Origin: Verrucomicrobiota bacterium
GTDB lineage: Bacteria; Verrucomicrobiota; Verrucomicrobiia; Verrucomicrobiales; Akkermansiaceae
NCBI GenBank assembly: GCA_040384605.1
Contig: JAZKIZ010000001.1
Span: 1 to 40,000, forward strand
DNA length: 40,000 bases
Reading direction: 5' to 3'
Shown here piece after piece: positions 410 through 3,346 of the stretch. A program made the translations under genes and the position numbers. Numbering within the stretch: position 1 is the first letter of the stretch; each line of letters opens with the position of its first letter. The notes under the pieces were generated by a model that did no database searches, was not told the origin of the DNA, and worked only from the letters and a program-made list of their open reading frames with translations.

Positions 410-2909
410 CTCCGTCAGCCACATCAGCTATTGGCCAACCGGTAAAGAAAAGGCCACTTGGGGTAGCCAGACCAATCCCGTTGTCAAACTCTATAGCCCG
501 CACGGCGAACTCATCGAGCTTCGCACCTTTCGCAGTTCCAACCTCGCCCTCGCTCCCGACGAAAACACCGCCGGTTACGACGCGACCACCTGGACTTACA
601 ACAACCGCGGCATGCTCACCCAGAAAACCTACGCCGACGACAAAGGCCCGACTTATACCTACACCCCCGGCGGCAAACTGCATACCCGCACCTGGGCCCG
701 CACAGTCGGCGGCAATCCACTCGTCACCACCAACGGCTACAACACCGCCGGAGAACTCGCCTCCACGGATTACTCCGATACCACATCCGACGTCTCCGTG
801 GTCTTCGACAAACTCGGTCGCCAGGTTTCCGTCAGCAACAGCTACGCCACCAGCGGCTTCGCCTACAATCCCGCCACCCTTCGCCAAACCAGCGAGACTA
901 TCAGCTACGACCTCAACCGCGACGGTACGCCGGAACTCACCCGCGTGCTTGATCGATCCCAAGACGTGCTCGGCCGCGATACCGGCTACTCTCTTCACGG
1001 GAGCGCGGGCGTCCCGCCCGCTGTAGAAGCGCAAGCGTCCTACCAATATTCAGCAACCAGCGGAAGACTCGAATCCGTGGGCAATGGTACCCACAACTTC
1101 GCTTATGGCTACGTTCCGAACTCCAACCTCATCTCCACTATCACCGGCCCCGCCCACACCGTCACCAACACCTACGCCGCCGACCGCGATGTTCTCCTTG
1201 CGAAAGAAAACAAAGTTGGCACCACCACGGTCTCGAAGTATCAATACACGGTTAATTCCCTCGGCCAGCGCACCGCCCTTGCCCAAACCGGCAGCGCCTT
1301 CCCTGCCGCCACCGGCTGGAACTGGGATTACGACATCCTCGGCCAGGTCACCACCGCCGAACATTCTTCCTTACCCGCCAACCACCGTGCCTACCAATAC
1401 GACGCCATTGGCAACCGCATCGAAGCCAGGGACGGTGTCACGACCGTAACAGGTACGACTAACTACGCTGCCAATGGTGTGAATCAATACATAGCCGTCA
1501 ACTCCTTGAGTCCGGCTTACGATTTTGATGGAAACGCCACCTCCTACCCGCTGCCCGCTGCCCCGGCCGTCAGCGGCACCTTTGCCTGGGACGCGGAAAA
1601 CCGGAAGATTTCCAACTCCGATGGAAACACGGTCACCATCGCATTTTACGACTCCCAATCTCGCCGCGTTGCCGAGACGAGAGAAGGCACCACCACCCTC
1701 TATGTTTACGATGGCTGGAACTGCATTGCCGAATACACAGGCTCCACCCTTTCCAGAATCCGCACCTGGGGCTTGGATCTACCAGGTCCACTACAGGGCG
1801 CAGGCGGAGTCAACGGCCTCTTGGCGGAAAAGCAAGGTGGCAACAGCTTCTACCCAACGTATGACAGCAACGGGAACGTCAGTGAATACCTTGACTCAAG
1901 TGGCGCAGTGAGTTCCCATTTCGAGTATGACCCGTTCGGCAACACCGTGGTCAACACTGATTCTACCAACCAGTTCGCCTACCGCTTCAGCACGAAACCG
2001 CTGAATTTTGCAACCGGATTCTACTACTATGGTTATCGTGACTACGACCCATTAACCGGCCGATGGCCATCAAGGGATCCGATAGAGGAAGAGGGAGGGG
2101 TGAATGTTTATGGGTTCGTCAACAATGATGGGGTTAATCTGTGGGATTTCTTAGGAATGTGGATTGGCCCCGAAAAGACCGAGAAAGGGGGGAAAGTAAT
2201 TCACCCGGGTCGACAATCCTCTGAAAGCGTTACTGAGGTTTGCGCCGAAGAAGGCGATACTTGGAATAGCTTGGCCGCAAAGGTCGGACTTGAGGGGGCA
2301 GAGGCTAGCGAGTGGGTGACTGGCTATACAGATAGTCCAATCCCAGGAAAAAAGTACAAAGTCCCAAATACCATTGTTGCTCATTGGGCAGGAGACGTCT
2401 TCGCCGTTGGTAAGGCATACGTGGGCTGGGACGGACAAATTCAATACCTCGAAAAATTGGGATTCAAGGTCGACAAACAAGATAGCGCGAAAGGAAAACA
2501 CTTCGCGCTCCAGAACAACCTCAATAGCAAGTCTTCAGCTAAATCACTGCATGGGTTATATTTTTGGGGCCATGGAGGATTAGGGCCAGGCAATGCAGAC
2601 GGCGATCAATATCCTGCGGTCGGGTTGGCGAGCAACAAGAATGGTGGGGTTATTGAAATACTCATTGATCAGCCATGGTTTACGAATGCGGCAGGCACAA
2701 AATATCAAGATTCCGGCCACCCAATCTTGTCCATGAAATACAAAATGGCGGCCGGGTTTGTGTTTGCATGCGACTCTAATTCCCTTAAGTCGGCCTTGGT
2801 TAGCAGCAGCGGGATATGGCACGGCTACAAAGGAACGCTCTACCCAATTTTTAAATTCTACGGACTCAAAGATCACATCAAGCCTGGCGATCAATCTACA
2901 CAAAAATGA
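357..2909 (+). CDS. RHS/YD-repeat family protein with a divergent C-terminal tip (polymorphic-toxin architecture). The true 5' end is uncertain.
   Basis: Many YD-type repeats ([60 protein letters not shown]). The canonical core end reads [46 protein letters not shown] (motif at 2121-2159) and is followed by about 249 unrelated residues. The TTG at 357 is only the ORF-finder start. Confidence 0.85.
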   Translation: [850 protein letters not shown]

Positions 2910-3346
2910 ACATCATGATTAAGTATAAACTAAAAATCGCAAGCCGCCTTACGCTTCTTGCCCTGACCCTCGGAAGCACTTCGTGTGGAACGGTCAAGGT
3001 TTACGAAAGTTATGGAATTCAAGCTCGAATTTCATATAAAGGCAAAGCCATTGCCAGGGAACAAGTTTCCATTTCCACACGTGGAAAAGTTAACGATTTA
3101 ACAACAGATGAGAATGGATTTATGAATCTAGCAGCTAAATCATCATCTAGGGTAACATGGCTTGGTGGGCCAATTGCCGCCAGCCTAGTGGAGCAGCATT
3201 ATGTCGTCAACGTCGAAGGTTATGAGCCAATTTCAATAAACTACCATCGAGTTCTTCCTGAGAAATCGACGATGGTCGATGGCAGACGCATTGAAGAAGA
3301 AGGAGGAATTATCAAAGTGGGAGAAATAAGATTAGCAAGAAAATAG
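2906..3346 (+). CDS. Small lipoprotein with a beta-sandwich (CarboxypepD_reg/transthyretin-like) pattern. Candidate cognate immunity protein.
   Basis: Its ATG overlaps the RHS stop (ATGA at 2906-2909). Signal peptide plus lipobox: MNIMIKYKLKIASRLTLLALTLGSTSC. The pattern KGKAIAREQVSIS...TTDENGFMNL...VVNVEGYEP is present. The gene shares the low GC of the RHS tip. Confidence 0.6.
   Translation: MNIMIKYKLKIASRLTLLALTLGSTSCGTVKVYESYGIQARISYKGKAIAREQVSISTRGKVNDLTTDENGFMNLAAKSSSRVTWLGGPIAASLVEQHYVVNVEGYEPISINYHRVLPEKSTMVDGRRIEEEGGIIKVGEIRLARK

Follow-up and report, generated by a model that had tools for sequence, protein, structure and literature searches.

The Rhs locus and its exchangeable cassette

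The left end of a 40,000-nucleotide (nt) stretch of Verrucomicrobiota DNA (contig JAZKIZ010000001.1, positions 1 to 40,000; hereafter called the window) carries an Rhs toxin gene followed by a lipoprotein gene. The Rhs/YD-repeat open reading frame (ORF) lies at 357..2909 on the plus strand (frame 3; 850 amino acids (aa) as called, with a TTG start) and encodes a shell, a core end and a C-terminal toxin tip. The Rhs-associated core domain (aa 524-601) occupies 1926..2159 (+), the tip of 249 aa occupies 2160..2906 (+), and the immunity candidate, a 146-aa lipoprotein, is encoded at 2906..3346 (+). We found an exchangeable Rhs toxin/immunity cassette of this Verrucomicrobiota genome at window 2022-3346, and its tip belongs to a family of its own.

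The core was recognized by the NCBIfam model TIGR03696 (Rhs_assc_core) with an E value of 7.3e-18 and 64.8 bits, against a cutoff of 32.5. It terminates in DFLGM|W with the boundary at 2159/2160, and the release motif RDYDP...SRDP...DFLGM|W is intact in the window Rhs protein; autoproteolytic release would be expected after the Met whose codon ends at 2159. A first-pass annotation, made by a model from the sequence alone, had placed the core end at 2121-2159. The coordinates of the second of its two motifs were exact, but the first motif (YYYGY) starts at 2022 and not at 2121. In PDB alignments, the core-end motif of family members lines up with the corresponding part of TccC3, YenC2, Tse5 and further Rhs chains. 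The shell repeats scored below threshold with PF05593 RHS_repeat (17.6 bits, cutoff 22) and with TEN_YD-shell (15.9 bits, cutoff 50), and at the nucleotide level the region 585-2155 shares about 65% identity with the shell of a 1755-aa Rhs gene on a metagenomic contig, L001 (JGI Ga0492740_0000224, 1-7502).

Base composition changes abruptly at the core end. The GC content and the GC content at third codon positions (GC3) are 0.586 and 0.70 in the shell, 0.488 and 0.49 in the core end, 0.489 and 0.51 in the tip, and 0.422 and 0.37 in the lipoprotein gene. In 750-nt sliding windows across the 40 kb, the mean GC content was 0.586 with a standard deviation of 0.034, and the minimum of all 40 kb, 0.435 at 2701, fell more than four standard deviations under the mean. 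Delimited by the GC/GC3 break, the low-GC cassette extends over 2022..3420 (+) and comprises the core end, the tip, the immunity gene and a short 3' flank. A drop in GC content from about 2040 to about 3420 had been described before, and the sliding-window run and the GC minimum agree with it, but the onset is nearer 2020-2030.

The contig L001 carries a related shell with a different tip. There the core ends in WDVLGL|C and continues into an unrelated, unannotated tip of about 160 aa, followed by a gene of 101 aa. After a DDE transposase (DDE_Tnp_1), the same contig encodes an orphan protein of 353 aa whose C-terminal 249 residues share 71% identity with the window tip, and then a lipoprotein, found by synteny, that is 32% identical to the window lipoprotein (E 6e-28). 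DNA similarity between this orphan cassette and the window begins at window 2016-2026, which coincides with the composition break. The GC/GC3 break at the core end, the different tip on a related shell and the orphan tip of the window type thus bear out the earlier suggestion of a swapped-in tip/immunity cassette. An independent Logan contig (L015) is 100% identical to the window over 1013-3523 and spans the junction, so the junction did not arise as a chimera in the assembly of this one record. Tips of the window family occur on Rhs proteins, on shell-less proteins and as orphans. Scans for repeats and for terminators or promoters around the cassette gave nothing above chance.

Overall, the system is a standard Rhs polymorphic toxin cassette. 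As in the Rhs proteins of Enterobacteria, Tse5 and TccC3, the core ends in a DPxGL-type release motif, the tip is variable, the composition changes abruptly at the core end and an immunity gene candidate lies directly downstream; the orphan tip behind a transposase in L001 is a further likeness. In contrast to these systems, the window YD shell is short and divergent and stands outside any PAAR, VgrG, type VI secretion system (T6SS) or TcB context, many family members are shell-less and consist of a signal peptide and the last core motif before the tip, and the partner is an exported lipoprotein instead of a cytosolic protein. What is new is an unannotated, phylum-restricted toxin family with a fused LysM-like module and a lipoprotein immunity pairing.

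The 5' end of the Rhs gene allows two readings. An upstream ORF in frame 2 (86..409, +), taken from the ORF list, overlaps the start of the Rhs ORF and matches no Pfam family. Frames 2 and 3 overlap at 357-409, and a one-base shift near 400-410 (CCCGGCGGATAAC) would fuse the two ORFs into a product of about 940 aa. The 86-409 ORF may be the real 5' portion of the Rhs gene, split off by a frameshift that would be either genuine, in a decaying gene, or an assembly error.

The tip family and its exported partners

No nuclease, deaminase or ART motif had been recognized in the tip at first reading, and the 249 aa indeed gave no match in Pfam or NCBIfam; the catalytic-type domain alone likewise gave none. 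Profile searches with three alignments matched the tip to no PDB sequence family and retrieved only Rhs core ends. A word-indexed homology search with the tip returned 21 relatives. An exhaustive profile search, which covered 1.84 billion metagenomic cluster representatives, returned 686 of them at E<=1e-3 and 371 at E<=1e-10, and the family comprises hundreds of 50%-identity clusters. None of the 64 relatives with precomputed Pfam domains has a domain on the tip, and 'hypothetical' and 'RHS repeat-associated' are the only source names among them. Run with a profile of the catalytic domain, a third homology search found no relative with a Pfam annotation. Among species-representative genomes, 11 of 11 loci belong to Verrucomicrobia, Kiritimatiellia, Lentisphaeria or the planctomycete family Anaerohalosphaeraceae. 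The tip family is real, sizeable, unannotated and restricted to the Planctomycetes-Verrucomicrobia-Chlamydiae (PVC) group. A literature search for experimental work on the family found none and, to our knowledge, polymorphic toxins have received almost no study in Verrucomicrobia, Kiritimatiellia, Lentisphaeria and Planctomycetes.

The architectures of the family range widely. At the long end are RHS_repeat proteins, the largest of 2843 aa, in which the tip domain lies at the extreme C-terminus. A 'mini-Rhs' form of about 280-310 aa has no YD shell; it runs from a Sec signal peptide through the last Rhs core motif ([YF]Y.P..GRW.SRDP…NLY.F..ND…D..GL) directly to the tip. At least 38 of the 182 family proteins have a Sec signal peptide of their own and take this form. 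Examples of the mini-Rhs form are found at loci L004, L006, L007, L008 and L011 and in proteins P0009, P0012, P0014, P0018, P0022 and P0023.

The gene directly after the window tip starts in an ATGA overlap (ATG 2906-2908, TGA 2907-2909). Its product passes a lipobox rule in the style of PROSITE PS51257, with Cys27 (codon 2984-2986) preceded by LTLLALTLGSTS and with Lys/Arg in the n-region, so both the overlap and the lipoprotein product had been read correctly. A second ATG at 2915 gives 143 aa and is the start in the NCBI record of the identical protein V4733_00015, from a Verrucomicrobiota metagenome-assembled genome; this protein was all that a word-indexed homology search with the lipoprotein returned. 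Neither Pfam nor NCBIfam assigned the lipoprotein to a family (DUF6795 was sub-threshold, E 0.019), and the models Imm36, Imm57, Imm65 and the other Pfam Imm models gave only chance-level scores, and no match, for the window partner and for eight partners from other loci.

We then compared the genes that follow homologous tips. At 13 genome or contig loci, the next gene encodes a protein of 138-180 aa with an N-terminal hydrophobic region; its start ranges from an overlap of about 20 nt to a gap of about 40 nt past the toxin stop. A Cys closely follows the hydrophobic region in 12 of the 13 (the exception is L002), or in 13 of 14 when the window partner is counted, and eight of these 14 pass the strict PS51257-style rule. 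A metagenome scan returned 59 loci, 52 of which had a usable match and were analysed; 50 had room for a downstream gene. These 50 gave 46 distinct downstream N-termini, of which 38-39 have a hydrophobic region and then [GAS]-Cys and two have signal peptides of the signal peptidase I type. Most of the remaining partners have a hydrophobic segment further inside, which suggests miscalled starts. Tip and partner are coupled, from overlap to about 43 nt, at more than 50 loci, and the partners are almost without exception exported proteins, mostly lipoproteins.

The partners belong to families that are unrelated to each other. Those of the window and L001 form one family, those of L004-L009 and L012 form a second, and those of L002/L019, L010, L011, L013 and L014 differ again. 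The commonest partner is a lipoprotein family of 140-150 aa, found at L004-L009, at L012 and at many of the loci L021-L049; its members have GC[YR]T…VNFGNGT close to the N-terminal end and QPxG[YF]P close to the C-terminal end, no Pfam model matches them, and they are not related to the window lipoprotein. That the export signal is constant while the partner fold changes is as expected of immunity proteins that meet their toxin outside the cytoplasm. The host genome encodes MurG and FtsZ and, hence, makes peptidoglycan. Taken together with the Sec signal peptides within the family, these data support the periplasm or the cell envelope as the predicted site of action of the tip. The first-pass annotation had proposed an envelope-acting effector with an envelope-anchored partner, a proposal to which the exported small partners after nearly every homologous tip lend support. 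By its gene position, the downstream lipoprotein is the candidate immunity protein.

The lipoprotein downstream of the toxin at L004 (4629-5132) ends in PPKHFIKPAQQQTH, a copy of the conserved toxin C-terminal tail (HFIKPGQQATH). This end looks like a recombination scar from a displaced tip.

Fold and proposed activity of the tip

AlphaFold2 modelled the whole tip with a predicted local distance difference test (pLDDT) of 88.4 and a predicted template modelling score (pTM) of 0.89; a domain-only model from 51 sequences reached a pLDDT of 91.8 and a pTM of 0.89. In the whole-tip model, a LysM-like beta-alpha-alpha-beta module (tip residues 24-69; 2229..2366, +), which includes W...GKKYKVP, precedes an alpha/beta domain of catalytic type with five main strands (residues 71-249; 2370..2906, +). 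The module consists of strand 24-28, helices 35-42 and 46-52 and strand 65-69, with pLDDT above 90, and its last strand continues straight into strand 1 of the alpha/beta domain. The order in the alpha/beta domain is strand 1, two helices, strand 2, a helix, strand 3 with Gly-His-Gly, a variable linker, strand 4 with Ala-Cys, a helix, strand 5 and a conserved tail (GTLxP…GDQxT). The linker between His and Cys is long and hairpin-rich, an insert specific to the subclade of the window. Its variation goes with that of the partner family, a hint that it may belong to the interface.

The LysM-like module was also found by local structural comparison. Foldseek aligned it with LysM domains in the PDB (5ylg, 4uz2/4uz3 and the YkuD LysM of 3zqd and 4a1i) with probabilities of 0.6-0.85 and a root-mean-square deviation of about 2 Å (2.0-2.5 Å) over 42-53 columns, but with E values of 0.35-1. 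The Pfam LysM model matched two of 102 family members (best E 0.022) and did not match the window tip. The LysM-like stretch that had been recognized from the sequence alone is therefore supported as a beta-alpha-alpha-beta fold in a confident model, but not at the thresholds of sequence searches.

We determined the conservation of the tip in an alignment of 102 family sequences that reaches about 25% identity. Cys204 (codon 2769..2771, +) is present in 102 of the 102 sequences, His138 (codon 2571..2573, +) and Gly139 each in 101, and Ala203 in 86; both codons had been located exactly in the first-pass annotation. The invariant columns are Pro69, Asn70, Gly132 and Cys204. Nearly as constant are Trp52 and Tyr194, with 100-101 sequences each, and Gly137, with 99, and the tip opens with a near-invariant Trp. 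Asn70 apart, no (near-)invariant residue other than His and Cys has catalytic chemistry, and in the model Asn70 would lie at the N-terminal start of strand 1, on the side of the sheet opposite to the presumed active site. The other near-invariant residues are at or just past the C-terminal ends of strands 1, 3, 4 and 5. A metal site at His/Cys was considered and rejected, since only two candidate ligands are invariant. Residues 222-249 (window 2823-2906) are conserved across the family as well, with G222, GTLxP at 225-229 and then PGDQxT; of the 102 sequences, 85 have Gly243 and 78 have Gln245. This C-terminal end may serve as an active-site loop, an export signal or an inhibitor contact.

The arrangement of the two residues is that of clan CD peptidases. 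Chen, Rawlings and Barrett reportedly showed in 1998 that a His-Gly and then an Ala-Cys, each after a hydrophobic strand, is the defining signature of this clan. The tip reads LHGLYFW-G-H138-G and AAGFVF-A-C204, with strands at 130-136 and 196-202 in the model; His138 ends strand 3 and is followed by Gly, and Cys204 ends strand 4, with Ala before it and a helix after it. The tip thus has the strand and His-Gly, the spacer, and the strand and Ala-Cys of the signature. When the tip was aligned by hhalign with single human sequences of legumain and caspase-3, both confirmed against the PDB, His-Gly fell on His-Gly and Ala-Cys on Ala-Cys. In register with legumain (family C13, legumain/GPI8), LYFWGHGG and FVFACDSNS of the tip stand against FIYFTDHGS and FYIEACESGS.

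Caspases (family C14) also recurred in structural searches. Caspase-1, -2, -4, -6 and -11 made up about nine and about 15 of the top 50 PDB matches of two models, and they were among the few matches that aligned over 150-187 of 188 residues, with template modelling (TM) scores of up to 0.39. In the viral library BFVD, an ascovirus executioner caspase ranked second (E 0.094), and metacaspase-like and caspase-domain proteins ranked 20th and 23rd. Caspases were the only enzyme family that recurred near full length in both libraries. The top BFVD match of the catalytic domain, A0A8S5MXG5, comes from an uncultured myovirus (E 0.028, probability 0.94, 171 columns); this uncharacterised protein of 320 aa may be a phage-borne relative.

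From these data, we consider it fairly probable that the tip is an envelope-acting thiol hydrolase with a His/Cys dyad in a clan CD-like arrangement, and that it is blocked by the exported lipoprotein. As we infer from the intact TIGR03696 motif, the Rhs core end would cleave itself after WDFLGM (GM|W) and free the 249-aa tip, which would start at its Trp. The tip would be a single rigid unit, in which the LysM-like module is fused to a small alpha/beta domain and the His138/Cys204 dyad is arranged as in caspase, legumain and gingipain (clan CD) peptidases. In the target periplasm or envelope, the LysM-like module would probably hold the tip on the glycan strands of peptidoglycan, and the dyad would hydrolyse or transpeptidate a peptidoglycan peptide or a wall-associated envelope protein. 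The co-transcribed lipoprotein, in the same compartment, would occlude the active site and so protect the producer.

Such a payload would have precedents. Tox-Caspase tips (clan CD-like, alpha/beta, with H and C) and Tox-LD-peptidase tips of Rhs proteins have been predicted for polymorphic toxins (Zhang et al. 2012, PMC3482391), so the statement in the first-pass annotation that this would be an unusual Rhs payload was too strong. Like Tox-Caspase, a predicted peptidase toxin, the window tip is an alpha/beta domain with His before Cys at the extreme C-terminus of an Rhs-type toxin. Unlike it, the tip lacks a significant caspase-like match in sequence or structure and carries a fused LysM-like module, and the partners in its family are lipoproteins or secreted proteins; Tox-Caspase is linked to Imm36 and Imm57, which are not reported as lipoproteins, and is not listed for Verrucomicrobia, Planctomycetes or Lentisphaerae (PMC3482391). 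The single lipoprotein immunity family in that survey is Imm65, and Tox-LD-peptidase is described there as wall-directed, with secreted or transmembrane immunity (PMC3482391). With Tox-LD-peptidase, with the Tae/Tai amidases of T6SS and with the L,D-transpeptidase-like Tlde1 effectors the tip would share the logic of a thiol enzyme, action in the target periplasm and exported immunity, all of these being predicted on the side of the tip. LysM-YkuD and LysM-NlpC/P60 enzymes likewise have a peptidoglycan-binding module beside a catalytic domain, and they were matched through their LysM parts. Effectors of the Tae/Tlde1 type differ in being papain-like, with Cys before His, or YkuD beta-barrels, and cleavage of peptidoglycan by the tip is a prediction. 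A papain-like/NlpC-P60 or YkuD catalytic fold was rejected: the modelled domain is alpha/beta, its His precedes its Cys, and matches to YkuD and NlpC/P60 enzymes involved the LysM parts only.

Several results weigh against the hydrolase mechanism and its clan CD component. Foldseek found no match at E<=0.001 for the tip models in the PDB and BFVD: the best E values were about 0.1-0.3 and 0.03-0.09, respectively, with TM scores of at most 0.43, and the domain-only model, made with a deeper alignment, did not improve the significance. For the named caspases E was 0.03-0.09 or worse, and generic Rossmann/flavodoxin-like proteins (periplasmic binding proteins, FolD, MogA, short-chain dehydrogenases/reductases) score alike over half the domain (about 70 residues). 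Profile searches of the PDB were negative; caspase-1 appeared at E 1.3-2 with one alignment (A4) and was gone with another (A5), and this match was treated as noise. Peptidase_C14 of Pfam matched three of 102 members (best E 0.064) and not the window tip. Pfam scans of 102 and of 51 members at E<=10 gave chance-level matches only, with Peptidase_C14, LysM, PsaF and Raf1_HTH in one to three members each. The hhalign alignments that put the motifs in register had P 0.031 (probability 1.6%) for legumain and P 0.21 (0.3%) for caspase-3, and no significant profile match was found to the clan CD families C11, C13, C14, C25, C50, C80 and CHAT. The caspase/hemoglobinase fold is alpha/beta/alpha with the sheet order 2-1-3-4-5-6; five main strands are seen in the model against a caspase fold with a sixth, antiparallel strand, and no equivalent of this strand or of the specificity residues was identified in the tip. 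The predicted compartment, the bacterial periplasm, also sets the tip apart from legumain and caspases. We know of no clan CD enzyme that cuts peptidoglycan, so that the substrate is a guess, and the LysM-like module stays below every sequence threshold. With respect to a delivery route, both candidate N-termini of the Rhs protein lack a signal peptide or trafficking domain, T6SS, PAAR, VgrG and TcB genes are absent from the 40-kb window, and the Rhs gene may be frameshifted at its 5' end. Thus, of the clan CD reading proposed at the outset, the motif order, the alpha/beta topology and the recurrent caspase matches stand, but a significant structural or profile match is lacking, and clan CD homology of the tip is plausible but unproven.

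The same results lead to an alternative in which the tip is a Cys/His enzyme on a flavodoxin/Rossmann-like fold that is independent of clan CD, such as an amidase, a transpeptidase-like enzyme or an acyl/thiol transferase with an envelope substrate. Compartment and immunity logic would be unchanged, and this reading would depart from the preferred one in the family assignment and perhaps in the chemistry. We regard this alternative as unlikely, but as the one that most needs to be kept in mind. The E values of caspases in Foldseek are no better than those of periplasmic binding proteins, FolD, MogA and AF1403, none of the clan CD families is linked to the tip by a profile, the single best structural match comes from a phage and is not a caspase but an uncharacterised protein, and the Cys followed directly by a helix resembles, in our own reading of the model, a nucleophile elbow. 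An independent fold would leave the order of His-Gly and then Ala-Cys after hydrophobic strands, the signature of clan CD, to be explained, as well as the fact that caspases alone among enzyme families aligned repeatedly near the whole domain in two independent libraries. Moreover, the other alpha/beta thiol hydrolases known to us, namely GATase, DJ-1/PfpI, pyroglutamyl peptidase and dienelactone hydrolase, place Cys before His.

Two further explanations dispense with an envelope enzyme. The tip might be non-enzymatic and use its LysM-like module to sequester peptidoglycan or precursors of it, with a structural or ligand-binding role for His and Cys. The module is present in the model, no enzyme family is matched significantly, and non-catalytic peptidoglycan-binding toxin tips have been proposed earlier (PMC3482391). 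Yet across the 102 sequences very few residues besides His and Cys are invariant, and these two lie on the C-terminal edge of a parallel sheet, the usual place of the active site in alpha/beta enzymes; two possible ligands are too few for a structural metal site, and a disulfide is disfavoured by the lack of a second invariant Cys. We hold a non-enzymatic tip to be very improbable. We likewise think it very improbable that the caspase-like domain is instead a releasing or processing peptidase of the Rhs protein, or that the tip is cytoplasmic and the lipoprotein is not its immunity protein. The majority of Tox-Caspase domains are viewed as peptidases with a releasing role (PMC3482391), and the immunity role is assigned by gene position alone. 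Against a processing role, the domain is the last in the protein, with nothing downstream to release, and the Rhs core already has its own release motif. Against a cytoplasmic tip, the short family members have signal peptides of their own, and at more than 50 loci the tip is tightly coupled to an exported small protein whose family changes and whose export signal stays, which is the pattern of a co-evolving effector and immunity protein. The outcomes that had been listed beforehand as telling against the first-pass annotation and that can be computed did not occur.

The envelope-acting thiol hydrolase, our preferred reading, can be extended to a bolder one, which we offer tentatively and hold to be possible but doubtful: the tip would be the founding member of PVC-specific, wall-directed thiol hydrolases, either highly reduced clan CD peptidases or a new Cys/His alpha/beta fold, that are tethered to peptidoglycan by a built-in LysM-like module, cut peptidoglycan peptides or a wall-anchored protein, which caspase-like enzymes are not known to do, and are delivered by Rhs cages as well as in a shell-less form, with several unrelated families of lipoprotein inhibitors having evolved against them. 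The near-constant pairing with an exported lipoprotein marks the tip family as a periplasm-acting weapon. If the dyad is catalytic, an envelope-directed cysteine hydrolase would be added to the effector repertoire, together with a set of natural lipoprotein inhibitors and a handle on PVC cell-wall biology. PVC bacteria have unusual envelopes, and the family may bear on how such bacteria fight each other. The shell-less proteins may show a role of the last Rhs core segment beyond closing the cage. The interest would rise further if the tip proved to be a peptidoglycan-directed clan CD hydrolase or the mini-Rhs form a distinct means of delivery.

Other genes of the window

Directly after the cassette, 3705-5075 (+) encodes a 456-aa ORF with weak matches to leishmanolysin (M8) and to reprolysin-like metallopeptidases and with a PEP-CTERM-like C-terminal sorting signal, all of them sub-threshold. 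Four ORFs of 442-829 aa (11444-12772, 20605-23055, 25029-27461 and 28361-30850) have no or marginal Pfam matches. The window also contains FtsZ at 23071-24795 and MurG at 30685-32073, both on the minus strand. The region 5072-39790 is otherwise housekeeping in content, with TrpB-like and FeoB-like proteins, a GH35 beta-galactosidase, RpoD, DsbD and an M16 peptidase.

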